The notes under the pieces were generated by a model that was not told the origin of the DNA, ran no database searches, and saw nothing but the letters and a program-made list of their open reading frames with translations. This document shows positions 1 through 41,962 of a stretch of DNA of 41,962 bases, in pieces (position 1 is the stretch's first letter; each line of letters begins with the position of its first letter). The position numbers were made by a program, and so were the translations under genes. Source of the DNA: a virus (taxonomy: Duplodnaviria > Caudoviricetes); IMG/VR virus record IMGVR_UViG_3300042557_001224, positions 1 to 41,962 of that record. The stretch is one strand, 5' to 3'.

Positions 1-254
1 GCGCCCGGAGCGTCATCGTGGCATGCGACTACCTCGGCGCGCACCGAGTGTCCCGGAGCGAGCTCGAGAGGCCCCTCTACTACCAGATCGGGCAGTAGGA
101 ATGTGTCTACCTCGGCCAGCGTGGCGTGACCGGTGGCCAGATCGGTGAACCGCACCATGACCGGCACACTCTCGTCGACCACAACGCCGAGAATGACCAA
201 AGTCGGACACGCGGCTATCGGCCGGGCCTGTGCGCAGGTTGTGCAGCTCATGGG
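1..254. repeat. Terminal direct repeat, left copy (circular overlap)
   Basis: Identical to 41709-41962 except T127 vs C41835. Confidence 0.97.
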
Positions 255-562
255 GTCGTGGCGGGTTCTGGTTGATCCTCGGTAGCGGGCACCGGCTCCT
301 GTGCATCGGGCTTGCTGTCGACCGCCATGAGTGCGGGCTTGGGCCGCAGACCCTTCTCGCCGGAGCGATACATCTGAATGCCCATGCGCTGCAGCATCTT
401 GTAGATCTCGGTCTTGCGAGCTTCATCGAGCTCGTGCGGCGTCAACTTCGCGGCCTGCTCTCCAAAGATCGCCATGTCGACCAGACGCAGCAGGTCCACG
501 TCGGAGATCGAGCGCCGCATCGGCCGCTCTTTGGTCTTGAACTTCGGCAGCGAGTTGCTCAT
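248..562 (-). CDS. Hypothetical protein (104 aa), first gene of the leftward late unit
   Basis: MSNSLPKFKTK...; ATG sits 4 nt after a TTTCTTTG element; its TGA overlaps (ATGA) the start of the next gene across the circular junction. Confidence 0.75.
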   Translation of the reverse strand: MSNSLPKFKTKERPMRRSISDVDLLRLVDMAIFGEQAAKLTPHELDEARKTEIYKMLQRMGIQMYRSGEKGLRPKPALMAVDSKPDAQEPVPATEDQPEPATTP

Positions 563-566
563 GGTA

Positions 567-597
567 CAAAGAAACGAAACGCGAGCGGCCCGCACAA
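567..597 (-). promoter_or_regulatory. Bacteroidota-type promoter TTG-N20-TTTCTTTG
   Basis: TTG at 597-595, 20-nt spacer, TTTCTTTG at 574-567, then TACC-ATG. Confidence 0.65.
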
Positions 598-657
598 GTG
601 CCGCATCGATGGAGCTCTCTCAACGGTCAGACAAAAAACCCCGATCATAAACATATA

Positions 658-692
658 TCGGTTTTTATTTCTCCGAAGGAGAATAAAACCGA
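658..692. other. AT-rich imperfect inverted repeat with GAA loop
   Basis: TCGGTTTTTATTTCTCC-GAA-GGAGAATAAAACCGA, a 15-bp stem with two 1-nt bulges. Confidence 0.6.
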
Positions 693-770
693 GCGCGCGC
701 GTGTAATCCGGCTCGGGGCCTGCGAAGGTTCAGGAGCCGCGTCCCGGAGGGCCTTCGAGGTATCTGGACC

Positions 771-925
771 TGTCCGCGACCTGTCCGGTTCTTGGTCCGG
801 TCCTCTGCTCGTCTGGAGTCCGTTTGGCTGTCCGACACCACACCGCCGTATGTCTTCTGCCCGCGTCCGTCGCGGTCTTTGTGGTGTTCGGATATGTCCG
901 GAGGACTGTCCGGAGAGCTGTCCGG
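771..925 (+). repeat. TGTCCG(G) short direct repeat cluster
   Basis: TGTCCG at 771, 782 and 829; TGTCCGG at 895, 907 and 919 (12-bp period). Confidence 0.6.
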
Positions 926-929
926 CCTT

Positions 930-961
930 CTAACCGTTCGTCACAGAGCTAACCGTTCGTC
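930..961 (+). promoter_or_regulatory. Tandem CTAACCGTTCGTC boxes (candidate operator/activator site 1)
   Basis: Copies start at 930 and 949; same 19-bp spacing at 9103/9122 and 10001/10020. Confidence 0.75.
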
Positions 962-971
962 CCAGAAAATA

Positions 972-1002
972 TTGTGGGAACGACTTCTGTATCTTTTCTT
1001 TG
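972..1002 (+). promoter_or_regulatory. Early promoter TTG-N20-TTTCTTTG
   Basis: TTG 972-974 and TTTCTTTG 995-1002; identical architecture at 9144 and 10042. Confidence 0.7.
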
Positions 1003-1034
1003 TATCAATCGAAACAACAAACACCTCTCACCAA

Positions 1035-1256
1035 ATGAACACCGCCACCACCGTCTGCTTTTTCGAAGGATCCTACCAGATCGAGCGCATCGTCACCGAT
1101 CGCCGCGTAGCCGAGGATTTCCTGATCTACAAGATGGGCGAGCTCGAGGCCCACCGCCAATCTGGCAAGTATTGGGCCAGCGTCGAAAAGAACGGACGCA
1201 CGACGCACTACGGATACAAGGACGGCATGCTGTGCGTTCACGCCTTCGCCAACTGA
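1035..1256 (+). CDS. Hypothetical early protein (73 aa)
   Basis: MNTATTVCFF...; preceded by the AAACACCTCTCAC leader and a predicted promoter. Confidence 0.75.
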   Translation: MNTATTVCFFEGSYQIERIVTDRRVAEDFLIYKMGELEAHRQSGKYWASVEKNGRTTHYGYKDGMLCVHAFAN

Positions 1257-1297
1257 GCCCACGACACAACACACAAACCTCTCAAACACTCCTCACA

Positions 1298-2044
1298 ATG
1301 ACCATCACAGCAGAACGTCGCAGCGAGATCGCCGCAAAGATCCGCGCCCTTCGCGCCAAGACCATCGAGAACGGTTGCACCGAGGCCGAGGCCATGGCCG
1401 CTATGGCCAAGGTCGAGGCCCTTATGGACCGCTACCGCTTCGAAAAGAGCGACATCGGGATGGAAGAGCCCGAAGAGAAATACGGCCGTGGCACCAAGTC
1501 CGGCTACGGCACCCGGCATGCCAAGTCCACCAAATGGCATCCCACCGTTGGCACGTGGGCGCTGCTCGCCAAGATGTGCGGCGTGAAGATCTGGACGACA
1601 TCACGCGATGGCAACGTGAACGCCTTCGGGGCTCAGGAGGACGTTCTGAGCATGTGGTACTATATGGACCTCGTGCGGGCTGCCTCTGAGACATCTTGGG
1701 CCAATGCGCACCACCTGAGCGGATACTCCCAGAGAGTCGCCTTTATGGTGGGGTTCTGCGATGGCGTCAACGCCAAGGTGCGGGAGATCATGGAGGCCCG
1801 CAAGGCAGCAGATGCTGCCCAGAACGGAGAGCGCGGCGTGATGCGCATCGGCCGCGATGCGGTCCTGCAAACTCGCTATCGTAATTTCGCGGCGCAAGAG
1901 GGTCTGCGTCTGCGCACCAAGTCCTATGGCGGCGGATCAGGCCAGCAGACCGGAAGGAACGAAGGCCGCGCGGCAGGATCGAGCGTCAACTTCGGCGGCG
2001 CTCGTTCGTCCGTGGGAGGCTCTGCAAAACGCATCAACAACTAA
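1298..2044 (+). CDS. DUF2786-domain protein
   Basis: N-terminal KIRALRAKT..NGCTEAEAMAAMAKVEALMDRY fits the DUF2786 pattern; C-terminal AFMVGF motif and Gly-rich tail. Confidence 0.75.
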   Translation: MTITAERRSEIAAKIRALRAKTIENGCTEAEAMAAMAKVEALMDRYRFEKSDIGMEEPEEKYGRGTKSGYGTRHAKSTKWHPTVGTWALLAKMCGVKIWTTSRDGNVNAFGAQEDVLSMWYYMDLVRAASETSWANAHHLSGYSQRVAFMVGFCDGVNAKVREIMEARKAADAAQNGERGVMRIGRDAVLQTRYRNFAAQEGLRLRTKSYGGGSGQQTGRNEGRAAGSSVNFGGARSSVGGSAKRINN

Positions 2045-2049
2045 AGACC

Positions 2050-2283
2050 ATGAGCGACACGAAGAAAACTGGAGGCCCGGCGTACCCGACAGCATACAAC
2101 TGCTACGATGGTGTCGGCGGTTTCACGACTGAGTATGTCAACGGAATGACCCTCCGCGACCACTTCGCAGGTCTGGCGATGGCGGGCGACCTTGGTTCCG
2201 GGGGCTTCATTCGTGACCAGTACGAAGCGGCAAAGTGGTACTATGCAATGGCCGATGCCATGCTCAAAGCCCGTGAGCAGTAA
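2050..2283 (+). CDS. Conserved small phage protein
   Basis: GGPAYP...GMTLRDHFAGLAM...YAMADAMLKAR, a widespread phage small-protein pattern. Confidence 0.8.
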   Translation: MSDTKKTGGPAYPTAYNCYDGVGGFTTEYVNGMTLRDHFAGLAMAGDLGSGGFIRDQYEAAKWYYAMADAMLKAREQ

Positions 2284-2302
2284 CCAACTAACCATCAGAA
2301 CA

Positions 2303-2521
2303 ATGGCAAAGACGAAGAAAGAGAAGTGCGCCTACTGCCACGGGTTCGGCCTAGCGGCCGACCTGTGGGGCGCGGGATATCGCTGGACGGTCCAAAAGGG
2401 GCAGACCAGCATGACGGCGCGAGTGAACTGCGACCGGTGCGGCACCGGCGGCACGCCGTCTGGCGAGACCGTTGCGGAGAGATCCCGCCAGCGACTGGCC
2501 GCGATCAAGAACAAACGATAA
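2303..2521 (+). CDS. Small zinc-finger protein (DnaJ-like CxxCxGxG)
   Basis: CAYCHGFG and CDRCGTGG motifs. Confidence 0.7.
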   Translation: MAKTKKEKCAYCHGFGLAADLWGAGYRWTVQKGQTSMTARVNCDRCGTGGTPSGETVAERSRQRLAAIKNKR

Positions 2522-2540
2522 CACCAACAACCAGAAGACA

Positions 2541-3122
2541 ATGACCGAACAGAATAAGACAAGGGTTTCCGAGCTGCTGCGGCGGCTCAACGCACCGGCG
2601 CAGCACCTGAAGCTCGTCGAAGAGGTAAAGGAGCTCACCGAGGCCATCCAGACCGGCGTGGGCATACCCGAAGAAATGGCGGATGTGGGGATCGTGCTGC
2701 AAGGGCTCGCGATATCGCACGGCGTCGATCTCAATGCGGTGATGGCAAGAAAGCTGCGCGTGCTCCTGCGGTCGCAGTGGGTGCCGGTGGGTGATGGAAC
2801 CTTCAAGCGCATCAAGATCGAGGGCGGCGAGATCCCGGCACCCCCGAAGGACGACAGCCGCAAGCCCGACCTCTCGCTGCTCTTCCGCGCCTTCGGCCCC
2901 GTGCTGGACGATCTGGCGCGCTTGACCAGCTTCGGAGAGCAGAAATACTCGCCGCTCGGATGGCGCGAGCAGAAGGACGGCGAGGCCCGCTACATCAGCG
3001 CCGCCATGCGTCACCTCTCCGCGCACCTCTCCGGCACCACGATCGACACCGAGAGCAATCTGCCCCATCTGGTGCATGCAGTTTGGTCCTTGATGGCGGC
3101 GCAATATCTGCACGACCAATGA
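2541..3122 (+). CDS. MazG-like nucleotide pyrophosphohydrolase fused to a DUF5664-type dATP/dGTP diphosphohydrolase domain (MazZ-like)
   Basis: N-half KLVEEVKEL...EEMADV (MazG acidic motif); C-half GEQKYSPLGW...RYISAAMRHL...DTESNLPHLVHA (DUF5664 pattern); located next to datZ and purZ. Confidence 0.75.
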   Translation: MTEQNKTRVSELLRRLNAPAQHLKLVEEVKELTEAIQTGVGIPEEMADVGIVLQGLAISHGVDLNAVMARKLRVLLRSQWVPVGDGTFKRIKIEGGEIPAPPKDDSRKPDLSLLFRAFGPVLDDLARLTSFGEQKYSPLGWREQKDGEARYISAAMRHLSAHLSGTTIDTESNLPHLVHAVWSLMAAQYLHDQ

Positions 3123-3147
3123 TCGACAAACACATCACAACACCAGA

Positions 3148-3657
3148 ATGGAAAAAGTAAGCACCCCCTACCTCGTGCGTCGCATGATGCACACGAAGCG
3201 CTGGACCATCATCAACACGGCGCGACCCCAGACGATCGCCGAGCACACCTGCGGCGTCATGATGCTGCTGGACAGCGAGGCTACAGACGCCGGGCTCTCG
3301 GCAGAGCAGCACCTTGCGCTGCTCCGGCACGCGCTCTATCACGACGCCTTCGAGGTCGTGTCTGGCGACATGCCGGGATCCTTCAAGCGTAACAACGCAG
3401 AGGTCAAGAGCGCGATCTCGAAGGCCGAAGAGGCCGCGAGCTGGGTACCGTCTGCGGAGTGTCCTCCGGAACTGAAGCACCTGATGCGCGCCGCCGATCT
3501 GGCGGAGTCCGTGATCTACCTCGATGACGCCGGTATCGGACGCCGTGCACGCCGTGTGACCGAAACGCTCCGCGCGATGGTCGAGAGTACCGGCTTCTCA
3601 CACCTCTTTTTCGAAACCAACAAACTCAACGACGATGAAGACTTGGGCAATCATTGA
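3148..3657 (+). CDS. datZ: HD-domain phosphohydrolase, putative dATP triphosphohydrolase
   Basis: KRW...QTIAEH...ALYHDAFE..SGDMP...AADLAE (YfbR/DatZ-type HD motifs); directly upstream of purZ. Confidence 0.8.
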   Translation: MEKVSTPYLVRRMMHTKRWTIINTARPQTIAEHTCGVMMLLDSEATDAGLSAEQHLALLRHALYHDAFEVVSGDMPGSFKRNNAEVKSAISKAEEAASWVPSAECPPELKHLMRAADLAESVIYLDDAGIGRRARRVTETLRAMVESTGFSHLFFETNKLNDDEDLGNH

Positions 3658-4648
3658 CCTCCAATTCGGCAGCACGGGCAAGGGCCTGATCGCCGGGATC
3701 CTTGCGAAGAAATGGGACGCAACACACGCGGTGACCGCGTGGGGACCGAACGCCGGGCATACGTTCATACACGCAGACGGCACCAAGGAGGTGCGCACGA
3801 TGCTGGCCAACGCCACGGCCCACAAAGGCCTGAAGATGGTGATGATCGGTCCCGGCTCGGTGATCGACGTGCCAGCGCTCCTGCGCGAAATGGACGAGGC
3901 CGGATGGAGCACGGACCGGTTGATCATCCACGACCACGCGTGCATCTTGCAGCCGCGACATGCCGAGGCCGAGGCAGCGTTCGTGCGGATCGGCTCCACC
4001 ATGAAGGGCACGGGCCGCGCCGCCATCGAACGCATGGAGCGCGACCCGGACACGAAGATCATCGCGCGCGATGCCCTCGATGGTCCCCTGCGCTCATGCT
4101 TGCGCACGCCGCTGCAGTACATGACCGAGCTCGCATCGGCAGAACGGGTGCAGATCGAGGGCGCACAGGGCTTCGGTCTGAGCCTCTATCACGGCGAGTG
4201 GCCGCACTGCACTTCTCGAGACGTGTCGACGCACCAGACGATGGCCGACTGCGGCATGCCTTTCGGGCGAGCTCCGCACGTCGTAGGATGTGTACGCACC
4301 TACCCGATACGCGTATCGAACCGCGTAACACCAGATGGTTCCGTGCACAGCAGCGGCCCCGGATATGGAGACCAGATCGAGACATCCTTCGCGGAGATCG
4401 GACAAGAGCAGGAGGTGACCACCGTCACCAAGCTGCCCCGCCGCATCTTCGAGTGGAGCGATGCGCAGTTCCTGCACGCGGCCAAGCAGAACGGCGTGCA
4501 AGACGTGTTCCTGAACTTCGTGAACTACCTCGAGGACGGAAGCATCAAGAAGATGGCGCGATTGGGCCACATCCGGCGCGTTGTCGGTGATCTGTTGATG
4601 GCGGAGGGTCGTGGGCCGCGCGAGGATCAAGTCGAGTTCATGCGATGA
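3635..4648 (+). CDS. purZ: N6-succino-2-amino-2'-deoxyadenylate synthase (2-aminoadenine biosynthesis)
   Basis: Adenylosuccinate synthase motifs with PurZ signatures: QFGSTGKG (Ser where PurA has Asp, GDEGKG), GPNAGHT, EGAQG, TTVTKLPRR, and LNFVNY where PurA has TKLD. Confidence 0.93.
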   Translation: MKTWAIIDLQFGSTGKGLIAGILAKKWDATHAVTAWGPNAGHTFIHADGTKEVRTMLANATAHKGLKMVMIGPGSVIDVPALLREMDEAGWSTDRLIIHDHACILQPRHAEAEAAFVRIGSTMKGTGRAAIERMERDPDTKIIARDALDGPLRSCLRTPLQYMTELASAERVQIEGAQGFGLSLYHGEWPHCTSRDVSTHQTMADCGMPFGRAPHVVGCVRTYPIRVSNRVTPDGSVHSSGPGYGDQIETSFAEIGQEQEVTTVTKLPRRIFEWSDAQFLHAAKQNGVQDVFLNFVNYLEDGSIKKMARLGHIRRVVGDLLMAEGRGPREDQVEFMR

Positions 4649-5277
4649 GCGCCTCGATCACGATATCCAGCGGCATCCTGCGCCACGCGGTCTACCGGAA
4701 CGGCGACGCCATCCGCCTACTGGTGCACATCATGCTGATGATCGCAGAAGAGGAAGCGGCGCACACCGGCACGGAAGAGCGCGAGGCCGGTGTGCTGGTG
4801 CGCTCCATGTACGAGCTCGGTCTGACCCTGCGATGGAGCAGGTCGAAGACCGTGCGCACCGCGGAGGCCCTGCGCAAGGCAGACGCTATCAAGACGCGCG
4901 CGGTGCCCAGTGGTACCGAGATCAAGTGCCTCTACTACTCACGCCCCGAGGCGCCCCGGAAGGAGCGCCCGGCGGCGGCGAGGCGCAAACCGGCACCGGA
5001 GCCCAAGAAGACACCAGAAGAGCGCGCGGCGCGATTTGCGGAGGCCTGCAGCGCTGTGATCGAGCTCGACCCCGCCAGATTGCCAGAAGCTCTGCGCAAG
5101 GAGTTCTACGCATATTGGACCGAGCAGAACGAGAGCGGTGTCTTGCGCTTCGAGAAGCAACCCTTCTTCGATCACGCCCGGCGCATGGACACATGGAGGC
5201 GGAACGCCGAGAGCAAGGGCTTCAGCGCTGGTCCCAGTGAGCCGCGCAAGTCTGGCATCTGGAACCCCCGCGCATGA
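4645..5277 (+). CDS. Putative replication initiator / helicase loader
   Basis: N-terminal wHTH-like segment, low-complexity linker, C-terminal FYAYWTE...RFEKQ..F...RMDTW; ATGA-coupled to dnaB. Confidence 0.6.
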   Translation: MSASITISSGILRHAVYRNGDAIRLLVHIMLMIAEEEAAHTGTEEREAGVLVRSMYELGLTLRWSRSKTVRTAEALRKADAIKTRAVPSGTEIKCLYYSRPEAPRKERPAAARRKPAPEPKKTPEERAARFAEACSAVIELDPARLPEALRKEFYAYWTEQNESGVLRFEKQPFFDHARRMDTWRRNAESKGFSAGPSEPRKSGIWNPRA

Positions 5278-6617
5278 GCATCACCGGAGCATCTACGGCC
5301 TCGGAGGGCACCATCGATCTGGAGCAGGCGCTGCTCGGCGCTGCAATGATGGACGGCAGAGGTCTGTCGGCGCTGGTGCGGATCCTCGCTCCGGACTCGT
5401 TCCACGACGAGAGACACATGCGCATCGCTGCCGTGATCATTTCACTGCACACGGCCAGTGCTCCGGTCGACATCATGACCGTGACGCAGGAGCTGATCCA
5501 GCGCGAGCAGCTCGCGTCGGCCGGAGGGGTGGTCTATGTAAGCGGCCTCACGAACCGCATCGCCAGCACCGCGAACTCCGAGTGTCACGCCCGGCTCATA
5601 GCTGAGCGCCACGCGCTGCGCTCCTTGGCCCGAGTGGCCTCCGATCTGGTCCAGAGCTCCGGACATGCCTCCGACCCGTTCGACGCGATCCGAGGCGCTC
5701 AGAATGCCCTCTCCGGGGTCATGAGCAGGCTGACCGCCGGTGCGGATGTGTCGCGCAACGCTGCTGAGGGCATCGGTGCGCTCGTGGACACAGCTCCGAC
5801 GCCGCCCGGATACAATCTGGGGGTCGCAGCCCTCGATCAAGTGCTCTCTGTGCAGCCGGGCCTGCCCTACGTCTTCGCTGGCAGGCCCGGCATGGGCAAG
5901 TCGATCATGTCGTGCGCTATCGCTTGGCATATGACGCTCGCTGGCGAGGCGCTGCTCTTCTCGCCAGAAATGACCCTCCGCCAAGTGCAGGCCCGCATCC
6001 TGTCCTTGGAGAGCGGCGTACCCTACTCGACGATCTTGGCCCGGCGCATGGACGCGCACCAAGTCGATCTGACCGCAGAATGTGCGAACCGCATCGCTGG
6101 GCGGCTCGCGCTGCTCCGCGTGAACGAGACCTCGGCCATAACACCGGAACAGGTGCACGCGGCCGCAGAGCGCTTCCGCAAGGAGACAGGCAGCGCAGGG
6201 TTCGTGTTAGATCACCTGCACAAGATGAGCACAGGAGATCGACGCGTGGACAAGGACGAGACACCTCGAGTGTCGCAATGCATGGAGGGGCTGACGCGCA
6301 TCTGCAAGGACACCGGCCTCTTTGGTGTGATCATGTGTCAGCTGAACAGACAGGTCGAGTCGCGGAATGACCGCCGCCCTCGCTTGGCAGACCTCAAACA
6401 GACGGGTCGCATCGAAGAGGACGCGGCCGGTGTCGTGCTGCTCTACCGCGACGGCTACTACCAGTCGCCACAGCCCTACGAGGACCTGCTCGAAATGGCG
6501 GTCGCAAAGAACCGCGACGGCTCGTGCGATGTGGTGAGCACGCCATGCGTGCCAGCCCTGAACCGTGTGGGTTACTGGAGCGACGGCGCGCCCCTGCGTA
6601 ACTACAACAACTTTTGA
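5274..6617 (+). CDS. dnaB: Replicative DNA helicase
   Basis: DnaB N-domain (LEQALLG, VDIMTV), Walker A GRPGMGKS, SPEM, QLNR, RPRLADL, KNRDG. Confidence 0.93.
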   Translation: MSITGASTASEGTIDLEQALLGAAMMDGRGLSALVRILAPDSFHDERHMRIAAVIISLHTASAPVDIMTVTQELIQREQLASAGGVVYVSGLTNRIASTANSECHARLIAERHALRSLARVASDLVQSSGHASDPFDAIRGAQNALSGVMSRLTAGADVSRNAAEGIGALVDTAPTPPGYNLGVAALDQVLSVQPGLPYVFAGRPGMGKSIMSCAIAWHMTLAGEALLFSPEMTLRQVQARILSLESGVPYSTILARRMDAHQVDLTAECANRIAGRLALLRVNETSAITPEQVHAAAERFRKETGSAGFVLDHLHKMSTGDRRVDKDETPRVSQCMEGLTRICKDTGLFGVIMCQLNRQVESRNDRRPRLADLKQTGRIEEDAAGVVLLYRDGYYQSPQPYEDLLEMAVAKNRDGSCDVVSTPCVPALNRVGYWSDGAPLRNYNNF

Positions 6618-6629
6618 CCATATAAAATC

Positions 6630-7295
6630 ATGGGCACGAACAACAAACTACTGACCACGATACGGGAGGCGCTGGATAAGTCTATCGCTGATGTAGAAAA
6701 GGCATGGCAACGGCCGAGTGAATTGTATGACCCGGTAGAGGAAGAGAGAGCGCTGCTTAAAGCGGCAAAAGATGCCCTTGCCGCCCTCGACCAACTGGAG
6801 GCACATCAGGCGGACATCGGCAAGCTGGTGGATGAAGTGTCAAACACCGTTCAGGCCGTAGTCGCCGCGTTCGAGCGGAAGTGCGGCCTCAGCGAATACA
6901 GCGACAAAAACAAATCGCTCGTCAAGTCCATGCGCGATGCAGCTGACGCCCTTCTCTATGGTACCTACACCGCCGCCAAGTCCGCCGCACCAGCACAGCA
7001 GCAGCCCAAGCGGTTGACGGATGAGGAAATCAAGGCGGAAATGATGCGCTACGACGAAAGCCTTGAGCAGAACACCAACTTCGACGTGACGGAGGTGCTG
7101 CAAATGGGGACGGCTTACGGAGCCGGGATGCGCTACGCCCGCGACAACGGCTACCTCGGCGGGTTAAGCGTGGAGGAGGTGATGTCTGAAGTTCACGAAG
7201 CATTGGTGGCAAAGGGTATCAAGTTCTCGGACAAGACGCTGCCAGTAGAACAAGACCTCCGCGCCCGCCTAACCGCCAAACTTCAAGGCAAATGA
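6630..7295 (+). CDS. Hypothetical protein (221 aa)
   Basis: Open frame filling the gap between dnaB and the convergent terL; A-rich leader. Confidence 0.65.
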   Translation: MGTNNKLLTTIREALDKSIADVEKAWQRPSELYDPVEEERALLKAAKDALAALDQLEAHQADIGKLVDEVSNTVQAVVAAFERKCGLSEYSDKNKSLVKSMRDAADALLYGTYTAAKSAAPAQQQPKRLTDEEIKAEMMRYDESLEQNTNFDVTEVLQMGTAYGAGMRYARDNGYLGGLSVEEVMSEVHEALVAKGIKFSDKTLPVEQDLRARLTAKLQGK

Positions 7296-8676: not shown

Positions 8677-8854
8677 TCGGTGGTAGGGGTTGTGCTGCGC
8701 CGAAAGCGCGGTCTAGCAACAGGGCCGCAGCGCGCACGTTGCCGTTTTGCGCTTCGTCAGCCATGGCGCGGAGGATCCGATAGAGGCGCGGTCTGCCAGA
8801 GATATCCTCGGAGAGGACATCGTGCAACGCCTCCCGCAGATCGCTGGCCGTCAC
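8579..8854 (-). CDS. terS: Probable terminase small subunit
   Basis: Helical AQNGNVRAAALLLDRAFG motif; upstream of terL; GTG start overlaps the HTH gene stop (GTGA). Confidence 0.6.
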   Translation of the reverse strand: MTASDLREALHDVLSEDISGRPRLYRILRAMADEAQNGNVRAAALLLDRAFGAAQPLPPNAGQRTIIYIDGPPGDQDQTERPAEAGAEAVD

Positions 8855-9054
8855 AACCGGAGCCGTTGCGCATCGGAGCGCGCGACGCCGCAGATGCGGG
8901 TAAAGACGTCGGAGCGCAGGTACTTTGACCGGCCGCTCATGAACTTGGACAGACACGCGCGGCTAACACCGGCCCGGTCTGCGATGTTTGACTGCTTCAC
9001 ACCCTTCGCACAGATCAGCATCAGGGTGTCCCGCAGCGTTTGCGTGGTTTCCAT
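8851..9054 (-). CDS. Cro/XRE-family helix-turn-helix regulator (67 aa)
   Basis: KQSNIADRAGVSRACLSKFMSG HTH; ATG 4 nt after TATCTTTG. Confidence 0.8.
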   Translation of the reverse strand: METTQTLRDTLMLICAKGVKQSNIADRAGVSRACLSKFMSGRSKYLRSDVFTRICGVARSDAQRLRL

Positions 9055-9058
9055 GTGA

Positions 9059-9089
9059 CAAAGATACGAATCAGAGGCCGCTCCCACAA
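9059..9089 (-). promoter_or_regulatory. Canonical Bacteroidota promoter TTG-N20-TATCTTTG
   Basis: TTG 9089-9087 and TATCTTTG 9066-9059 match the -33/-7 consensus TTG/TAnnTTTG. Confidence 0.7.
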
Positions 9090-9102
9090 GGCCGCACACC
9101 TT

Positions 9103-9134
9103 CTAACCGTTCATCACTCTTCTAACCGTTCGTC
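9103..9134 (+). promoter_or_regulatory. Tandem CTAACCGTTC(G/A)TC boxes between divergent promoters
   Basis: Copies at 9103 and 9122. Confidence 0.75.
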
Positions 9135-9143
9135 ACAAAATAC

Positions 9144-9174
9144 TTGTGCGGACGACTTCCGTGTATTTTCTTTG
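9144..9174 (+). promoter_or_regulatory. Early promoter TTG-N20-TTTCTTTG
   Basis: TTG 9144-9146 and TTTCTTTG 9167-9174. Confidence 0.7.
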
Positions 9175-9203: not shown

Positions 9204-9716
9204 ATGAAGACCCAGACCACCATCATCGAGCAAGCCGCACCAGCAGTCGCCGCGTCCTACGTCGCCCTCGTCCACACTACCTACAACGCGCTCGTGCAGA
9301 AGATGGGCGGCACGAACATGAAAGGCATCTACAACCGCCGCGAGATCTTCACCTTCCGTGCCATCGAGGCGTGCATCAACAAAGAAATGGGAGCGTGGCC
9401 CGAGAACAGCATGATCTGCACGATCGACGAGACGAAACTCGCCGCCGCCGCCGCCGCTCATGCAGAGGCCACCGTCGCAGAGTGGGCCGCAAAGATCACC
9501 GCCAAGATGGGCGAGCTCGATACCGCCGAAGTTGCCGCCATGGGTAGCACGAGCTTTAGCGTGAGCGGCACGAAGAACGGCAAGCGGGTGCACATCGAGC
9601 AGACCATGATCATCAACGTCTCGAGCCGTGGCATCCTCTTCAACCAATTCCCCGCCCTGATCTACGTCGAAGGCAAAAAAACACCCGCGTCGAAGTTCGG
9701 CGCGGCCGTGGCCTAA
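9204..9716 (+). CDS. Hypothetical early protein (170 aa)
   Basis: MKTQTTIIEQ...; AAACACCTCTCACA leader; strong C/G third-position bias. Confidence 0.8.
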   Translation: MKTQTTIIEQAAPAVAASYVALVHTTYNALVQKMGGTNMKGIYNRREIFTFRAIEACINKEMGAWPENSMICTIDETKLAAAAAAHAEATVAEWAAKITAKMGELDTAEVAAMGSTSFSVSGTKNGKRVHIEQTMIINVSSRGILFNQFPALIYVEGKKTPASKFGAAVA

Positions 9717-9990: not shown

Positions 9991-10000
9991 AGCTGCCTCT

Positions 10001-10072
10001 CTAACCGTTCGTCCCTCTTCTAACCGTTCGTCACAGAATACTTGCACGATCGAGCTCCGCATCTTTTCTTTG
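10001..10072 (+). promoter_or_regulatory. Tandem CTAACCGTTCGTC boxes plus TTG-N20-TTTCTTTG promoter
   Basis: Boxes at 10001 and 10020, TTG 10042-10044, TTTCTTTG 10065-10072. Confidence 0.72.
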
Positions 10073-10934: not shown

Positions 10935-12332
10935 ATGAGCACACCCACGACCATCGAGGCACGCATTTCTCACGATCTCGCCCAGTTTGATCCAGTAGAT
11001 GCCGAGATCGCCAAACTCGCACAAGAGTATCACGGCCTGCAGATCAACGGACCAGATGACAAGGACGGGCGCAAGATCGTGCACGCCGCTTGGCAGGTGC
11101 TCAGAGACACCCGCCTCGGCGCGGAGAAGCTACACAAGGCGCTGAAGGAGGACGCCCTGAAATACACGCAAGCCGTAGATGCCCGGAAGCGCCAGATCGT
11201 TGGTGCGATCTCCGACATGGAGGATCGGTTCTATGCGGACTGGAAGGCATTCGACGCCGCCATCGATGCCCGCAAGAGGGCGGAGGCAGAGCGAGCCGAA
11301 AAGGAACGAACCGAAATGCTGGAGCGCAGGAGGCAATCTCTCTATGCCCTCGGCCTGTTCTTCGACGGCGCGCACTACGTGTCGAAATATGAAGGGGTCG
11401 CACCGGTGACCACGCTCATGCTGGAGCAGGGCACCGGCGAGCAGTTCGCCGAGGCAGAGCGCAAGGCGTGGATCGAGATCGAAGCGGCCCGCGTCGAGGC
11501 CGAGCGCATCGAGGCCGAGCGCATCGAGGCCGAGCGCATCGCCAAGCTGGAGGCCGAGCGCCTGCAACGCATCCAGAAAGAGCTCGATGAGAAAGTGGCC
11601 CAGATGCACGAAATGCGTGTGCAGTCACGCCGCGCTCGCCTACTCGGGATCGGTTGCAGCGAGCTCTCTGGCGGCACTATGCTGGTGTTCTTTGGTGATA
11701 TGGATCTGTGGTCGTTGTCGGCAACCGAGATCGACAGGATGGATGATCGCGATTTCGAGGTTGCCGTCAGTGCAGCCATGGTGGCCATAGAAGATGCCAA
11801 GAAGCGCACACGAGAGGCGGCGGAGTGGGCCGAGAAGCAGGAACGACACCAAGCACGTCTGCGCATGCTCGAGGCCCGCGTGAAGCGTCTGAAGGACTCA
11901 GGGTGGGTGCACATGGACGGAGAACATGAGCCCTACCTCTCGCTGTGTGACGCCGACCACAAGGTGATTATGACCTTGCTCTACGATAGCGAGCAGGGCA
12001 TCACCGGAGCCTCTGATGACAAGATCAACGAGTGTGTCGCCAAGGGCCTCGTGATCCAGCAGGCCATGGCCGCCCGGCATGAGGCAGAAACTATCGAGCG
12101 CATCCGTAAGGAAGAGCTCAAGCGGATCGAGGACGAGAAGGCCGCGAGCGCTGCAGCTGAACAAGAGCGCAAGGCGCAGCAATCAGACGCACAGAAATGG
12201 CAGGAGTGGCGCGCCAGCATCAAGACATCTGCACCCAGCATGCAGAGCCAGATCGGCAAGCACGGAGTGAAGCACTTGCTCCAGCTGCTCGAGGACATGA
12301 CGCCCGGCATGGTCGCCGATCTTGCCGACTAA
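10935..12332 (+). CDS. Long coiled-coil protein of the recombination module (DUF1351/Gam-like, uncertain)
   Basis: 465 aa, E/A/R/K-rich, EAERI x3; lies directly upstream of the RecT-like gene. Confidence 0.6.
   Translation: MSTPTTIEARISHDLAQFDPVDAEIAKLAQEYHGLQINGPDDKDGRKIVHAAWQVLRDTRLGAEKLHKALKEDALKYTQAVDARKRQIVGAISDMEDRFYADWKAFDAAIDARKRAEAERAEKERTEMLERRRQSLYALGLFFDGAHYVSKYEGVAPVTTLMLEQGTGEQFAEAERKAWIEIEAARVEAERIEAERIEAERIAKLEAERLQRIQKELDEKVAQMHEMRVQSRRARLLGIGCSELSGGTMLVFFGDMDLWSLSATEIDRMDDRDFEVAVSAAMVAIEDAKKRTREAAEWAEKQERHQARLRMLEARVKRLKDSGWVHMDGEHEPYLSLCDADHKVIMTLLYDSEQGITGASDDKINECVAKGLVIQQAMAARHEAETIERIRKEELKRIEDEKAASAAAEQERKAQQSDAQKWQEWRASIKTSAPSMQSQIGKHGVKHLLQLLEDMTPGMVADLAD
11496..11540 (+). 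repeat. In-frame 15-bp tandem repeat x3
   Basis: GAGGCCGAGCGCATC repeated perfectly three times (EAERI). Confidence 0.9.
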
Positions 12333-12359: not shown

Positions 12360-13073
12360 ATGGACCAGTTACCTACCAAGGCAGCAGAGCAGCATCCGTC
12401 GAAATTCGAAATGGCGCAGCGCGAGGCCAAGGCGCTCGCCTCCAGCGACCTCGTGCCAGCGGCCTATAAGAACAACGTCGCGAATACCCTGCTGGCAATG
12501 GAGATAGCGAGCCGCGTCGGGGCTTCTCCTTTCGCGGTGATGCAGAACCTGCACATCGTACAGGGCCGCCCTATGTGGAGTTCGTCCTTCCTGATCGCCT
12601 GCGTGAACTCCTGTGGTCGCTTCTCGCCTCTGCGATTTGAGACGCGCGGAGGCAGCGATGCCAGCAGCAAGACCTATGCCGTGCGTGCTATTGCCACCGA
12701 CAAGGAGGGCGGCAAGGATTGCGTAGGTGCTTGGATCACTTGGCCGATGGCCGAGGCCGAGGGATGGGCAAAGAAAACGGGCAGCAAGTGGTCCACGATG
12801 CCAGAGCAGATGTTCATGTACCGTGCGGCAGCATTCTGGTCACGCGTCTTCGCGCCGGAGATCAGTCTAGGGATGCACACCAGCGATGAAGCCGAGGACA
12901 TGCAGCGCGAGCGTCACGCACCGGTGCGCACGATGAGCCTGTCGCCGGTCCAGATGGCCACGGCCAAGGCGGAGATCACCAGCGGTAACGCTTCGATCGA
13001 CAGCATTCAGGAGCTGATGCCAGAACTCGACCCCGCGCAGCTCGAAGAACTCAAAGCGCACGCGGCCAAATGA
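12360..13073 (+). CDS. recT: RecT/Red-beta-like single-strand annealing protein
   Basis: LASSDLVP..YKNN...PFAVMQNLHIVQGRP...W..MPEQM..YRAA..W.R.FAPE..LG; followed by an exonuclease gene. Confidence 0.75.
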   Translation: MDQLPTKAAEQHPSKFEMAQREAKALASSDLVPAAYKNNVANTLLAMEIASRVGASPFAVMQNLHIVQGRPMWSSSFLIACVNSCGRFSPLRFETRGGSDASSKTYAVRAIATDKEGGKDCVGAWITWPMAEAEGWAKKTGSKWSTMPEQMFMYRAAAFWSRVFAPEISLGMHTSDEAEDMQRERHAPVRTMSLSPVQMATAKAEITSGNASIDSIQELMPELDPAQLEELKAHAAK

Positions 13074-13861
13074 TCAGGCAGCATGATGATGCGGCTTGGC
13101 GCGCTACGCGCGTGGGCCGCTTTACGGCATCTAAGATGCACACGCTAATGTCACAGCCGCGCAGCGCTGCAGACAGAGCGGCGGGCAAGTTCAGCGAGGC
13201 CGGACACGACTACATCACCGCAAAGGCGGTCGAGCGCGCCACCGGCGTGGCCATGGACTCTAGTGATCTGCACTCGCATGGCATGCGGCGCGGCCTGCTA
13301 CTGGAGCCCGCCGCGCTGCACTTGTTAGGCCTGCATTGGAAAGAGTGCAAGGCCTGCACATGGCAGCCGATAGGCCAGATCGCTGGCAGCACTCCAGATG
13401 CGCTGGTAGACGCCGGTGAGCCGATGGACCTCAAATGTCCGACCAATCCGTGTGATGTGGTGCGCTTCGGCCTCGAGGTGGTGGGCGATTTCGAGTCGCT
13501 TCTCTCTTGGGATGCACATTATGCTTGGCAGATCGCCACGCAGGCCCTATCATGTGGAGCAGATCGCGCGCACCTAGTGCTGTTCACCGATGCACTGCCC
13601 ATCATCAAACTGAGCGAAAGCGAGCGCGAGATCGCACAGGAACTGATCGACGAGGCTGCGGATCATCATTCAGCTCTGCACGGATGGCCGTGGAGCTACC
13701 GCTACAAGAGCGACGGCATGCACTTCGTCGCTCGGTCCTTCGAGATCGGCCAAGACATCAAGGACCGCATCACGAAGACGCTCGAGCGGGCCGATCTCGA
13801 GTGCGATCGCGTCATGCGAGAGGTCACCAAACAACTAGACACGACATGGAAAAGAAACTGA
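13070..13861 (+). CDS. YqaJ/lambda-type exonuclease
   Basis: W...RVGRFTAS, MRRG..LEP, GSTPDA, DLKCP, Y.WQ motifs. Confidence 0.85.
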   Translation: MIRQHDDAAWRATRVGRFTASKMHTLMSQPRSAADRAAGKFSEAGHDYITAKAVERATGVAMDSSDLHSHGMRRGLLLEPAALHLLGLHWKECKACTWQPIGQIAGSTPDALVDAGEPMDLKCPTNPCDVVRFGLEVVGDFESLLSWDAHYAWQIATQALSCGADRAHLVLFTDALPIIKLSESEREIAQELIDEAADHHSALHGWPWSYRYKSDGMHFVARSFEIGQDIKDRITKTLERADLECDRVMREVTKQLDTTWKRN

Positions 13862-14097
13862 TCGAGATCTTGAGCGAGGCCATCGTCTCGCGCCGCCGCG
13901 CTCTGCGCTTCGGGTGGAGTAAGAGGAAGGACCACGGCGATGTGTCGCGGGCGCTCATGCGGTGTGAGCAGTTCGTCGCCTCTTATCCCGGCGCTAGCGA
14001 TGCCTTGGTGCGCGACTGGTGCAGGAACAACGCCGAACATGTCTACCGCGTCGTGCTTGGTCGCCGCGCCGGTGTGCTCAACAAGCTCATGTCATGA
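13846..14097 (+). CDS. Hypothetical protein (83 aa)
   Basis: MEKKLIEIL...; overlaps both neighbours in a tightly packed operon. Confidence 0.6.
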   Translation: MEKKLIEILSEAIVSRRRALRFGWSKRKDHGDVSRALMRCEQFVASYPGASDALVRDWCRNNAEHVYRVVLGRRAGVLNKLMS

Positions 14098-14516
14098 TCC
14101 AGTGGCACAGATATCAGAGGGCTGACGGCGAGTGGGCCGAGTTCGGTGCGTTCGTTCTGGAGGCCAGCAGCAACGGCTCTTGGGTCGTGCGCCACAAGAT
14201 GGGCGAGGTGCCGTGCCGCTGCAGCGCCGATCTTGGTGGTATGCAGCCGGGCGGGATCGACTCCGCGAAAGCTGCGTGCGAGAAGATCCTCGCAGAGATA
14301 CTGGCCGCCCCCAGTGGGAACGGCGCGCTAGTTTCTACCTCTGCCCTCAAAGAACAGAAGGCCATCACGGTCGCCCTGTGTAAGCGACATATGGCCGTGC
14401 GTGCGCTGCAGGCAGAGGCCGCCGAGAAGAACACGGAAGAACACACCAACAAGGCCAACGCAGCGCAGAGCGAGCTCGATCGCCGCATCAAGGCCTATAT
14501 TGACCAGAATACATGA
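14094..14516 (+). CDS. Hypothetical protein (140 aa)
   Basis: ATGA overlaps at both ends. Confidence 0.7.
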   Translation: MIQWHRYQRADGEWAEFGAFVLEASSNGSWVVRHKMGEVPCRCSADLGGMQPGGIDSAKAACEKILAEILAAPSGNGALVSTSALKEQKAITVALCKRHMAVRALQAEAAEKNTEEHTNKANAAQSELDRRIKAYIDQNT

Positions 14517-14932
14517 GCAAACCCACAGGCATCTACGAGGGCAAAGAGGACGGTTTCCAGCAGTCCGCGATCCGGCTCATCAGGATCGAGCTCAGGGCTG
14601 CGGGCTATGATCCAAAGTGCGCGGTGCACATACCGAACGGCGGCGAGCGACATCCAGCCGTAGCGGCCAAGATGAAGGCGGCCGGAGTAGTACCCGGATA
14701 TCCCGACATCATGGTGTTCGTGCCAGAGGTCTTGCCGCCCATCAACCGCCGCAGGGAGATCGTGATACCGCGCTGCGGTCTTGCGCTCGAGCTGAAGGTC
14801 TGGCCGAACAAGCCGACGCCCAATCAGGCACACGTCCATGAACTGCTCCGCTGGTCCGGTTGGCGAGTGGTAACATGCTGGTCGCTGGACACCGTAATTT
14901 CGGAGATCAAGCAATATCTGGACCGGCGATGA
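14513..14932 (+). CDS. VRR-NUC nuclease / Holliday-junction resolvase-like
   Basis: HIPNGG, GVVPGYPD, LELK, TPNQ PD-(D/E)xK motifs. Confidence 0.85.
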   Translation: MSKPTGIYEGKEDGFQQSAIRLIRIELRAAGYDPKCAVHIPNGGERHPAVAAKMKAAGVVPGYPDIMVFVPEVLPPINRRREIVIPRCGLALELKVWPNKPTPNQAHVHELLRWSGWRVVTCWSLDTVISEIKQYLDRR

Positions 14933-15408
14933 AGAGCAGCACAAATGTCGGGCGCACCGGTCTGGTGTTCGAAATGGCCGGAGAGGCCCACACGATGTCA
15001 CCGGAGGAACTCGAAGCCATCGAGCGCTCCGGACCCCCGCACAGCTGGCGCGAGTACGCCGGAGGCCATCACGGACGCGGCTACTGGCAACCGCGACCCG
15101 GGCATATCACGGGCTCGATCCTCCAGATGTGCCTGCGCCCCGGTAGAACCGAGCCGGGGATCTTGCCCGTGGACCCGCCACCGCTACCAGCCCCAACCCG
15201 TGGTCAACCCATGTTCGTCAGGTCTGGAGACAGGGCGCTGCACTGGATCATCAAGCGAGCGGATCGTCGCGGCGTCTATCGCGCCTGCGATCCCAACCGC
15301 GCTTTCGCGAAGCCCTGTGATGGTCTGTTCATGAAGAGGTTCAGCGCGGCCATCTGGATCCCGAGGCTGTGCCCCATCTGCGTCGAAATGTTCAAGCTCC
15401 GCGACTGA
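14929..15408 (+). CDS. Hypothetical protein with a C-terminal Cys cluster
   Basis: ATGA overlap upstream and TGATG downstream; C..C..CPIC. Confidence 0.6.
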   Translation: MKSSTNVGRTGLVFEMAGEAHTMSPEELEAIERSGPPHSWREYAGGHHGRGYWQPRPGHITGSILQMCLRPGRTEPGILPVDPPPLPAPTRGQPMFVRSGDRALHWIIKRADRRGVYRACDPNRAFAKPCDGLFMKRFSAAIWIPRLCPICVEMFKLRD

Positions 15409-16109
15409 TGCTGTTATATACCAGTCTCTCACCCTCCGCCTCGGCCGTCGCAAAACAGCGAGAATGCATCGAATCGTGGCTCGCCCACGGCCACGAGGTC
15501 GTGTGCGTTCAGGGTCGATGTGACGACATCGCCGCATCTATCGATGGTCTGCCCGTGCAGGTCATACGCACCAAGCCCACGATGGCGGGTAGCAGGCCCA
15601 AGGCATATGTGGGACTCGATGCGATACTTGACGCCTTCCTGCTCAGCGGTGCGGATCGCTGCGGGATCATCAACGGAGATATCGAGATCTACGACCCAGA
15701 TGGACTGATCGACGCCGAGCAACGTGGTCTGGCGTGCGTGCGGCGCTACGACCATGATGGAGATCTGGCGACCGCACGCGTTTTCCCGTCTGGCTTCGAC
15801 CTCTTCCTGCTAGATCGCAGCCATGCCGAGTCGGTGCCCCGCTCCATGTTCGTGATCGGCCAGACCTTCTGGGATTATTGGCTGCCGTGGTCGTGCCTGC
15901 AGGCCGGGCACATACTGACCACCATCGACGCACCAGTGATCTATCACAGGAGGCACGCACTGAACTACGCGCACCAAGACTGGCTGCGCACGGTCCATCA
16001 CTTTTGCTGGCTTACGAACAGATCTACCAACGTGCAGGCCATCCGCATCAGCACAGACGTACACACGGCGATCAACAGAGCGATCGCACAAACCCAAAGC
16101 ACCAGATGA
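15408..16109 (+). CDS. Putative GT-A fold glycosyltransferase
   Basis: GIINGDI (DxD-like), GFDLF, IGQTFWDYWLP, YHRRH. Confidence 0.6.
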   Translation: MLLYTSLSPSASAVAKQRECIESWLAHGHEVVCVQGRCDDIAASIDGLPVQVIRTKPTMAGSRPKAYVGLDAILDAFLLSGADRCGIINGDIEIYDPDGLIDAEQRGLACVRRYDHDGDLATARVFPSGFDLFLLDRSHAESVPRSMFVIGQTFWDYWLPWSCLQAGHILTTIDAPVIYHRRHALNYAHQDWLRTVHHFCWLTNRSTNVQAIRISTDVHTAINRAIAQTQSTR

Positions 16110-16822
16110 CAACAGATATCTTCATACGGACCTGCGCCAAGGACATCGCTTGGCTAAGGTTCGCCATCGCCTCGATCCGCTCCCGTGTTAGCGGCTATCG
16201 CCATCTGGTGATCACCTGTCCTGTGCGCGATGTAGCCCGCGTAGCTCGCGCTACCGGCGAGCACGTGATCGGCGTGCAGGCATTTGTCGACGACTACATC
16301 GGACAGCAACACACAAAGCTGACAGCGACAGATCATACCGATGCCGATGTGATCTGCTTCTGGGATAGCGACACGATGGCCGCAGAGGCCATTGATCTGA
16401 ACTCGTTGCTGTTCGGCGAGGGCGGTCTCGTCTTGCATCGCGTCCCGTTCGCCGGTCTGGCAGACGGTTCGGAGATCTGGCGCTCCATCGTGACTAGGGA
16501 CATGGGTTTCGAGCCAGAGTACGAGTCGATGCGCAGACTGCCGTTGGCCTACCACCGAAAGACGCTGCTCGACTGCAAGAGACACATTGAGAGAACACAC
16601 GACATGCCCCTGCGGGCCTATATGCTGAGGCTACCACAAAGGTCGTTCAGCGAGTTCAATTGCCTAGGCGCTTGGATCGAGGCCAACGAGACACACCTCT
16701 ATGATCTGCGCATCAATGAAGGCGAGGCGGCCATGTGGAAGAAGCGCGTGCGCCAGTTCTGGTCGTGGGGCGGGATCACACCACAGGTCCTAGACGAGTT
16801 GCACAGCATCGGGCTAGCCTAA
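16106..16822 (+). CDS. Putative glycosyltransferase (DUF6492-like)
   Basis: DIFIRTCAKD..WL, YIGQQHTKL, FWDSD (DxD), FSEFN.LG. Confidence 0.65.
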   Translation: MTTDIFIRTCAKDIAWLRFAIASIRSRVSGYRHLVITCPVRDVARVARATGEHVIGVQAFVDDYIGQQHTKLTATDHTDADVICFWDSDTMAAEAIDLNSLLFGEGGLVLHRVPFAGLADGSEIWRSIVTRDMGFEPEYESMRRLPLAYHRKTLLDCKRHIERTHDMPLRAYMLRLPQRSFSEFNCLGAWIEANETHLYDLRINEGEAAMWKKRVRQFWSWGGITPQVLDELHSIGLA

Positions 16823-16831
16823 ACGCGCGAC

Positions 16832-17500
16832 ATGATAAAGACCATCAAGCTCGCAGACGGGTCGAGCGCCAAGATCATCGAAGGCGACACCCACATCTGC
16901 AAGTGGATCGAGGATTCTGGGCGCCTCGACCACGACCAGAACATGCTCCCGCTGCTGATCCCCCACTTGCGTGGCACGGTCCTAGACATCGGCGCCTTTG
17001 TTGGAGACCATACCACCTTCTATGCCAGACATGCCGACAGGGTGCTAGCATTCGAGCCGAACCCGGAAGCCTTCGAATGTCTGGCCTACAACACCGGCGA
17101 TCTGGCTAACGTGTCCTTCCATGAGGTCGGACTGGGCGCGCGATCTGGCACGGCGTCGCTGGTGCCGCATGCCAACGCTGGTATGGCCACATTGCGATCT
17201 GGCGACGAGATCTCGATCATTACTCTGGATTCTCTCAGTCTGCCCTCCGTAACCTTCATCAAGATCGACGCCGAGGGATGGGAGTGTGACATCTTGGAGG
17301 GAGCCCGCGCCACCATCGCCAGATGTAGGCCCGCCATGCTGATCGAGGTCAATGCTGGGGCGCTGAAGCTCCACGGCAGATCGGCCGGTGAGCTGCTGAC
17401 CATGCTCGGAGGCATGCAATATGTGATGCGGAACATCTACGCAGAGCAACCCATGAGCGGTACTCAGTTCGACATGCTTTGTGAACCCTTATTCCCATGA
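16832..17500 (+). CDS. FkbM-family SAM-dependent methyltransferase
   Basis: VLDIGAFVG, AFEPNP, TLDS, FIKIDAEGWE..ILEG, P.MLIE. Confidence 0.92.
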   Translation: MIKTIKLADGSSAKIIEGDTHICKWIEDSGRLDHDQNMLPLLIPHLRGTVLDIGAFVGDHTTFYARHADRVLAFEPNPEAFECLAYNTGDLANVSFHEVGLGARSGTASLVPHANAGMATLRSGDEISIITLDSLSLPSVTFIKIDAEGWECDILEGARATIARCRPAMLIEVNAGALKLHGRSAGELLTMLGGMQYVMRNIYAEQPMSGTQFDMLCEPLFP

Positions 17501-23085: not shown

Positions 23086-23086
23086 C

Positions 23087-25466: not shown

Positions 25467-25470
25467 GCTC

Positions 25471-41555: not shown

Positions 41556-41959
41556 CGGTCTAGGATAATGGTGCGAGGCCCTGCTGGGAACAGAGAGCCG
41601 TCGACGTTGAACGACTTGATGGTCACGAAATCTACGCACTCCACCGCATAGGCGGCGGGTCCGGTGTTCCCGTCTTCGTCTGTGATCAGTGGAAGGAAGG
41701 CCACAGGAGCGCCCGGAGCGTCATCGTGGCATGCGACTACCTCGGCGCGCACCGAGTGTCCCGGAGCGAGCTCGAGAGGCCCCTCTACTACCAGATCGGG
41801 CAGTAGGAATGTGTCTACCTCGGCCAGCGTGGCGCGACCGGTGGCCAGATCGGTGAACCGCACCATGACCGGCACACTCTCGTCGACCACAACGCCGAGA
41901 ATGACCAAAGTCGGACACGCGGCTATCGGCCGGGCCTGTGCGCAGGTTGTGCAGCTCAT
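41552..41959 (-). CDS. Hypothetical protein (135 aa), possibly structural
   Basis: MSCTTCAQ...; beta-rich; coupled to the 248-562 gene across the circular junction. Confidence 0.7.
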   Translation of the reverse strand: MSCTTCAQARPIAACPTLVILGVVVDESVPVMVRFTDLATGRATLAEVDTFLLPDLVVEGPLELAPGHSVRAEVVACHDDAPGAPVAFLPLITDEDGNTGPAAYAVECVDFVTIKSFNVDGSLFPAGPRTIILDR

Positions 41960-41962
41960 GGG
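41709..41962. repeat. Terminal direct repeat, right copy
   Basis: Matches 1-254 with one mismatch. Confidence 0.97.

Follow-up and report, generated by a model that had tools for sequence, protein, structure and literature searches.

Phages that replace adenine by 2-aminoadenine (Z) have so far been described with a polymerase of their own: among those treated in PMC8342488, all but S-2L have PolA, and S-2L has PrimPol. For S-2L, control of the nucleotide pool without a selective polymerase has already been shown (PMC8065100, PMC8342488). Transfer of datZ, mazZ and purZ to Escherichia coli replaces 3.9% of chromosomal and 12–23% of plasmid adenine by Z via host enzymes (PMC8342488), a second report gives 9–27% Z in plasmid DNA (PMC12944874), and Klenow polymerase does not discriminate against Z (PMC8342488); host enzymes can therefore perform the incorporation. 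Here we describe an uncultured freshwater phage of the Caudoviricetes, IMG/VR record IMGVR_UViG_3300042557_001224, analysed over its full 41,962 nucleotides (the window). It carries a Z-cluster, a predicted replication initiator gene and a dnaB gene, and we found no polymerase or primase gene. We consider it probable (roughly 0.7) that this phage, with a likely Bacteroidota host, replicates a Z-rich genome by means of host primase and DNA polymerase III (Pol III) after exchanging the dATP pool for dZTP.

The Z-cluster consists of three adjacent, co-oriented genes at 2541–4648, arranged in the same way in L001 and L002, two contigs of one relative. The first gene (2541..3122, plus strand) encodes a MazZ-like (MazG/PRA-PH) domain fused to a DUF5664 dATP/dGTP diphosphohydrolase, as assigned by Pfam (PF18909, E 5.7e-21; PF01503, E 7e-5) and pairwise comparison. 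The N-terminal half aligns pairwise with S-2L MazZ at E 5e-7. It also matches the MazZ/DUF550-type domain that phage SH-Ab 15497 carries at the C-terminus of the same fusion, there in the opposite domain order; the Pfam scan of the fusion protein gave no match to PF04447 (DUF550) itself. With a MazG-type domain and PF18909 encoded next to datZ and purZ, the protein groups with the MazZ/DUF5664 diphosphohydrolases. An identity as MazZ-2 was dropped, as phiVC8 MazZ-2 gives no match.

The second gene (3148..3657, plus strand) overlaps purZ by 23 nucleotides and encodes a DatZ-type HD dATP triphosphohydrolase, assigned by its best match in the Protein Data Bank (PDB; S-2L DatZ, 6zpa, E 2.6e-12), by phrog_7076 and by residue correspondence. 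Residues R18, W19, I21, H33 and H65 correspond to S-2L R19, W20, I22, H34 and H66, and D66, E69, D74, K80 and D117 to D67, E70, D75, K81 and D119. All HD metal ligands are thus present, as is the W-x-I specificity gate (S-2L W20/I22), which keeps Z out; the departures from S-2L are P79 to S and K116 to R. The third gene (3635..4648, plus strand) encodes PurZ of the ATP-using type (PDB 7odx, E 1.9e-68). Its S13, invariant across 45 aligned homologues, aligns with phiVC8 S14, the Ser which replaces the catalytic Asp13 of the PurA fold; F11, T262, F295 and Y298 correspond to phiVC8 F12, T262, F295 and Y298, of which F295/Y298 mark the ATP-type site. The protein nests among PurZ sequences in the tree, where the PurZ of its clade sits on a long branch, and NCBIfam NF038379 is its best family, ahead by 144 bits. 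The ratio of nonsynonymous to synonymous divergence (dN/dS) against L002 is about 0.15 for all three genes (fusion 0.15, PurZ 0.14; dS is near saturation). As judged from these comparisons the Z genes are intact and under purifying selection. Close relatives form six other PurZ clusters.

An earlier note on this DNA had placed the system at 3635–6617, which holds purZ, the initiator gene and dnaB and leaves out datZ (3148–3657) and the fusion gene (2541–3122). It had also proposed a ‘minimal three-gene Z system’, which is not new; what is present is the known Z-cluster, and the three-gene test in a host has already been published with orthologues. The phage shares with S-2L the ATP-type PurZ, the W-x-I gate of DatZ, a MazZ-like domain and, as proposed here, selectivity by way of the pool and not of a polymerase. 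It differs in the fusion of that domain to DUF5664, in the order mazZ-datZ-purZ, and in having an initiator and DnaB and no polymerase where S-2L encodes PrimPol and an SF2 helicase. The DpoZ phages (phiVC8, SH-Ab 15497, PMBT28 and uncultured phages with PurZ and PolA) likewise have a Z-cluster, but with PolA.

The genes for PurZ, the initiator-like protein and DnaB are joined by ATGA overlaps, as had been noted earlier; we located these at 4645–4648 and 5274–5277, and both are also present in L002. The order of Z-cluster, initiator gene and dnaB is conserved in L001 and L002. The product of 4645..5277 (plus strand) is a predicted replication initiator, with an N-terminal winged helix, a basic linker disordered in the AlphaFold model, and a conserved helical C-terminal domain (mean predicted local distance difference test score, pLDDT, 79). 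The Pfam scan gave no family name for it. Its model aligns with the RepA_N plasmid initiator 4pta (Z-score 8.9, root-mean-square deviation 3.5, 90 aligned residues), a match that ties with generic winged helices. Its neighbours in the ESM Atlas are HTH_36/DnaD/RepL-like, and the top Atlas cluster is mostly of Bacteroidota. The C-terminal domain is encoded just upstream of DnaB in four of 14 related loci, and close relatives form nine other initiator clusters. The dnaB gene (5274..6617, plus strand) encodes a phage DnaB-type helicase with N- and C-terminal domains (PF00772 and PF03796), the Walker A motif GRPGMGKS and a KNRDG motif. Its nearest named relatives, at 45–46%, are from metagenome-assembled genomes of Flavobacteriales. 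These DnaB relatives, the mostly Bacteroidota Atlas cluster and the TTG..TTTG promoters described below point indirectly to a likely host among the Bacteroidota.

A winged-helix gene directly upstream of dnaB is the arrangement of initiator-DnaB phage replicons. Pseudomonas phage D3 is alike in that its winged-helix initiator gene overlaps the DnaB gene, in its RecT–exonuclease pair and in having no polymerase or primase; the window phage differs from D3-type modules in the Z-cluster joined upstream, in giving no integrase match and in the lack of iterons in the initiator gene. A search of that gene in the window and in L002 revealed just two-copy repeats at chance level. The lambda O/P genes belong among the initiator/helicase modules of phages that depend on the host polymerase. 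The proposal of lambda-style recruitment of the host replisome with pool control withstood every polymerase search and is the best reading, although the system is not strictly lambda-like, because it has an initiator with its own DnaB, of the type annotated in D3, and no initiator-gene iterons. Between two divergent promoters, 772–924 contains nine GTCCG repeats against 0.33 expected, with an AT-rich patch alongside (about 630–690). This region is a candidate origin but was not assigned as one, since the repeats are not conserved in L001.

That no open reading frame (ORF) shows polymerase or primase motifs had been stated from inspection, and it was borne out by three kinds of searches. The 52 ORFs of the window gave no polymerase or primase match in Pfam or PHROGs, and 119 further frames of at least 110 codons gave no Pfam match of any kind. 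Six-frame searches of the window for PolA, PolC, PolB, Prim-Pol and DnaG_N found none, with control genomes positive. Profiles built from Z-phage PolA, archaeo-eukaryotic primases and PrimPol found nothing in the window (best E 2 to 5.7), while DatZ (2e-36) and PurZ (1e-127) served as positive controls. The phage thus has neither the family A polymerase of the DpoZ type nor the PrimPol of the S-2L type. Its lack of an own polymerase or primase is well supported by these searches, if not absolute, and for the clade it rests on one complete genome.

The genome, which the earlier note had taken as apparently complete, is so by several lines of evidence. The window ends in an assembly repeat of positions 1–254 (41709..41962, no strand), revealed by terminal repeat comparison and read bridging; the 254-nucleotide copies have one mismatch, at which two sequencing runs match the other copy. 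CheckV gives a completeness of 100%. A 25,624-bp unitig with an even depth of 37, assembled from a sequencing run that is possibly the source sample, crosses the junction uninterrupted (23107 to 41962, then 1–7022), and gene order across the junction is kept in L001. From the terminal repeat, CheckV, the unitig and the L001 order, the genome is therefore a closed circle of 41,708 bp. All three sequencing runs examined carry the label lake water. In 22186–23136, inside a tail-fibre-like gene, read depth is about twofold and variant bases occur; this region is either shared with a second phage or varies within the population. No relative came up when viral contigs were scanned with the single proteins PurZ and terminase.

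Three ORFs (6630–7295, 9204–9716 and 10935–12332) had been singled out for profile and structure searches. The profile searches were negative, and the structural side gave a poor model only (9204–9716, single-sequence model, pLDDT 51; no match among viral folds at E 0.001). ORF 10935–12332, which groups with phage coiled-coil clusters, is the sole unassigned ORF of more than 300 residues outside the terminase/structural run; ORFs 6630–7295 and 9204–9716 contain no DxD motif. None of the three has a match in L001 or L002, which span two of the syntenic intervals, and in which the terminase gene directly follows dnaB.

A survey of PurZ phages places this absence in context. It comprised 83 partly redundant IMG/VR records (the best 80 of 435 matches plus three), of which 76 have PolA; among the records at least 90% complete the fraction is 31 of 32. 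The exception is G001 (IMGVR_UViG_3300016294_000004; L180:7632-8447, minus strand, with PurZ near L180:12275-13699), a complete 42-kb phage with PurZ, DUF550, DatZ and an initiator (phrog_2509, E 4e-35), in which the search set used for the window found no polymerase or primase. A fragment related to G001, L099, is binned with Vicinamibacterales. A further 13-kb fragment, G002 (L183, 44% complete), encodes PurZ, DUF5664, DatZ, NinG and an HTH_36 initiator of another family. In PurZ trees the polymerase-less sequences form long branches; one quick tree separates them, a second groups them in part, and a single clade with G002 is not rejected (approximately unbiased test, p-AU 0.30). Independent origins of these lineages are not established, because the PurZ phylogeny is unstable.

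Among isolates, 201 records have a PurZ-like match; each of the six inspected has its own polymerase, those of Bm1 and vB_OspP_OH being annotated as such. The cultured Bacillus phage vB_BpsS-140 (L420, MH884512.1) was rejected as a polymerase-less isolate, since it carries DnaE. It resembles the window phage in having no PolA and in that copying would fall to an enzyme of the Pol III type, but encodes its own Pol III alpha subunit and a DnaG-DnaB fusion, neither of which the window phage has. Besides its PurZ-like gene, it also encodes dUTPase, adenylate kinase and two sigma factors. Four Micavibrio-like and Clostridium contigs (L104, L106, L109 and L122) have PurA-family genes with the Ser motif GQFGSTGKG amid housekeeping genes and no DatZ; that of L104 adjoins a MazG gene.

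The prevalence of PolA in complete PurZ records, and the two flagged ORFs without a reliable fold, would fit a polymerase or primase that is encoded but too divergent to detect, or one provided by a co-infecting DpoZ phage. We regard this as very improbable. The only large unassigned ORF belongs to a coiled-coil group, the two others lack DxD, phages without a polymerase, D3 among them, have the initiator and DnaB module, and the genome is equipped with terminase, portal and lysis genes of its own.

Replication by the host enzymes would proceed as follows. Judging from gene order, one early promoter at position 972 would drive the pool enzymes ahead of initiator and DnaB, and this early operon order would couple pool exchange with origin firing. 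By analogy with characterised orthologues, the fusion protein would convert dGTP to dGMP and dATP to dAMP, PurZ would make dSMP from dGMP, aspartate and ATP, and host PurB, Gmk and Ndk would complete dZTP; DatZ would destroy dATP and spare dZTP via W19/I21. Once loaded by the initiator, phage DnaB would bring in DnaG and Pol III of the host. Because little dATP remains, the non-selective host polymerase would insert Z by default.

Two footprints in the genome suggest, if indirectly, that Z is really used. The first concerns restriction sites. The window strongly avoids four of eight six-base palindromes without A (observed/expected: GCCGGC 0/21, GGGCCC 0/11, CCGCGG 1/23, CCCGGG 3/12) and none of 34 testable ones containing A, a pattern present in each genome half. 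PurZ-less relatives matched in GC avoid both kinds. G084 (GC 0.61) avoids five of eight A-free and 12 of 33 A-containing palindromes, and A-containing sites are avoided in G086 (7 of 17) and in the L269 stretch of G089 (5 of 14). Among the 16 sites avoided by G084, the window avoids four of the five A-free and none of the 11 A-containing (Fisher p 0.003). CTGCAG, GTGCAC and CCATGG, at 0/8.8, 0/7.7 and 0/6.3 in G089, occur 30/33, 17/19 and 20/21 times in the window. The same tendency was found in a wider comparison of loci of at least 15 kb and GC 0.5–0.7, others being dropped: median observed/expected for A-free and A-containing sites is 0.42 and 0.82 in 39 PurZ+PolA loci against 0.75 and 0.68 in 29 DnaB loci (p 1e-6, the loci not being independent). 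The Z-phage SH-Ab 15497 (0.39 and 0.91) resembles the window. Four-base palindromes gave no footprint. The adenines of this genome would thus seem to have been long shielded from restriction, and such a footprint might allow Z use to be screened for from sequence alone.

The second footprint concerns promoters. The Bacteroidota consensus TAnnTTTG spans −12 to −5, which places its A at −11 (PMC9723704), and 2-aminopurine data indicate that a 2-amino group at −11 hinders stable RNA polymerase complexes (PMC1919498). Five intergenic TTG-N20-TNnnTTTG sites, predicted by motif search, head gene runs of the window; four of these read TTTCTTTG. A predicted Bacteroidota-type promoter, TTG-N20-TTTCTTTG (972..1002, plus strand), lies upstream of the co-oriented run 1035–7295, which contains the Z-cluster, initiator gene and dnaB, and its TTTCTTTG box is conserved in L001. 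The others with T at −11 lie at 9144..9174 and 10042..10072 (both plus strand) and at 567..597 (minus strand), the last a leftward promoter heading the structural gene run. Just the predicted promoter (9059..9089, minus strand) of a helix-turn-helix (HTH) gene at 8851–9099 keeps the canonical TAnnTTTG, likewise in L001 and L002. L001 agrees with the window in the −11 pattern, and G002 has two TTTCTTTG promoter sites with leaders resembling those of the window. In a fixed-rule census, position −11 is T in five and A in two sites of three Z records, against A in six, T in one and G in one site of 16 PurZ-less records; both A sites in Z records are the orthologous HTH promoter. A looser census gave T7/A3 for Z records and A9/C5/T4/G3 for the others, whose T sites are in AT-rich records. 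Promoters for the host sigma factor appear to have dropped the −11 A, at which a 2-amino group hinders opening.

The same data bear on a reading which we hold to be unlikely: that the cluster, though active, makes little Z and mainly drains dATP for host takeover or counter-defence, the footprints reflecting another host's restriction and sigma preferences. Such a reading accords with the low Z produced by the triad in E. coli, with the missing footprint of G001 and with comparison phages that may have other hosts. It is at odds with the release of A-containing sites alone, in both genome halves and as in PurZ+PolA phages, and with an intact and conserved PurZ; moreover, draining dATP without supplying dZTP would be expected to starve a phage that depends on the host polymerase.

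Several points weigh against a Z-rich genome copied by the host. Z use, the Z fraction and the host are all inferred, and the phage is uncultured. PurZ scores 277 bits (E 1.7e-82) against NF038379, below the cut-off of 300; the initiator has the fold of a generic winged helix; no origin was identified by the iteron search of the initiator gene and the GTCCG comparison; and ORFs 6630–7295 and 9204–9716 have no reliable fold. The palindrome footprint is lacking in the proven Z-phage S-2L (1.00 and 0.92) and in G001 (0.84 and 0.76), and AT-rich PurZ-less loci likewise score A-free sites lower than A-containing ones. The phages used for comparison are distantly related (DnaB 46% and 24%) and incomplete (78%, 43% and 32%). 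Z blocks just 53% of 147 enzymes in the data of PMC12944874, and GTCGAC is released in the window although SalI cuts Z-DNA. The promoters are predicted, with small counts from two lineages; one PurZ-less record has T at −11, A is retained at the HTH promoter, and opening of a promoter with T at −11 by host sigma lacks an explanation. Finally, as reported in PMC8342488 and PMC12944874, the triad alone gives about 4–27% Z in E. coli and is toxic, and DpoZ raises Z. E. coli with the transplanted cluster is alike in that host polymerases insert Z under triad control, but it is engineered and partial, where the window would represent a natural lineage apparently maintained in this way; full substitution by a host replisome goes beyond what the triad has shown in E. 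coli.

Another reading adds a further phage factor to pool control: the host replisome would be used, yet a small protein of the phage, or its divergent DnaB, would alter the selectivity of Pol III or DnaG or block host replication. Several early ORFs are unassigned, the clade's PurZ is on a long branch, and DpoZ with helicase and single-stranded DNA-binding protein lifts Z in E. coli to about 50–60% (PMC12944874). We give this idea little credence, as the flagged ORFs at 6630, 9204 and 10935 are unmatched in L001/L002 and S-2L manages without a selective polymerase (PMC8065100).

Replication by host enzymes under pool control remains our preferred reading; that Z incorporation is enforced purely by the pool, as the earlier note had it, is less certain, since a small phage factor may also act on the host replisome. 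The chemistry, pool control and sufficiency of the triad are already known; what appears to be new is a natural polymerase-less phage depending on them, with genome-wide signs of adaptation. In the openly readable literature we found no polymerase-less Z phage and no Z-adapted promoters, although the genome tables of PMC12884076 could list a case. A phage whose Z-DNA has to be handled by the primase, Pol III and sigma factor of its host would reveal the reach of pool control alone. It makes two questions testable: whether a bacterial replisome can sustain a full Z genome, and whether changing the −11 A to T rescues transcription of Z-DNA. The main obstacle named in the literature to a cell with ZTGC-DNA is the poor tolerance of sigma factors and origins for Z. 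The phage would also offer candidate components: an initiator and a helicase that tolerate Z, and a promoter free of A. More tentatively, and with odds that we place somewhat below even, up to three lineages (this clade, G001 and the fragment G002) might form a class that propagates fully Z-substituted genomes on an unmodified bacterial replisome and RNA polymerase, with sigma promoters rewritten to an adenine-free TTTCTTTG that fires on Z-DNA and the A-bearing regulator promoter as a possible Z sensor. If so, this class would be a natural blueprint for such a cell.

A tandem operator-like repeat with the core CTAACCGTTCGTC (926..967, plus strand; repeat family D5) has further copies at 9099–9140 and 9997–10038, so that copies precede the three rightward promoters. 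The exact CTAACCGTTCGTC core is found in L001/L002, and a scan for the operator pattern across at least 119 loci gave one with a terminase match, apparently by chance. The divergent HTH gene at 8851–9099, near these repeats, is Cro-like. No integrase match was found in the window by Pfam, PHROGs or the Pfam scan of further frames; the phage is therefore probably virulent.

Among the other genes, 12360–14932 encodes a RecT-like annealase, an exonuclease and a VRR-NUC-like resolvase, a set that could support recombination-dependent replication. Glycosyltransferase-like ORFs at 15408–17500 (plus strand; by motif, with a weak DUF6492 match) and an FkbM methyltransferase at 31322–32179 (minus strand) might glycosylate the capsid or surface, or serve to modify the DNA in a second way. 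The gene at 27823–28878 (minus strand) fuses a head-morphogenesis-like N-terminus (phrog_595) to an ADP-ribosyltransferase domain (PF03496, E 8e-23), possibly a virion-delivered enzyme of host takeover; it adjoins an ORF for a Cys-rich protein of 63 residues (27635–27826).

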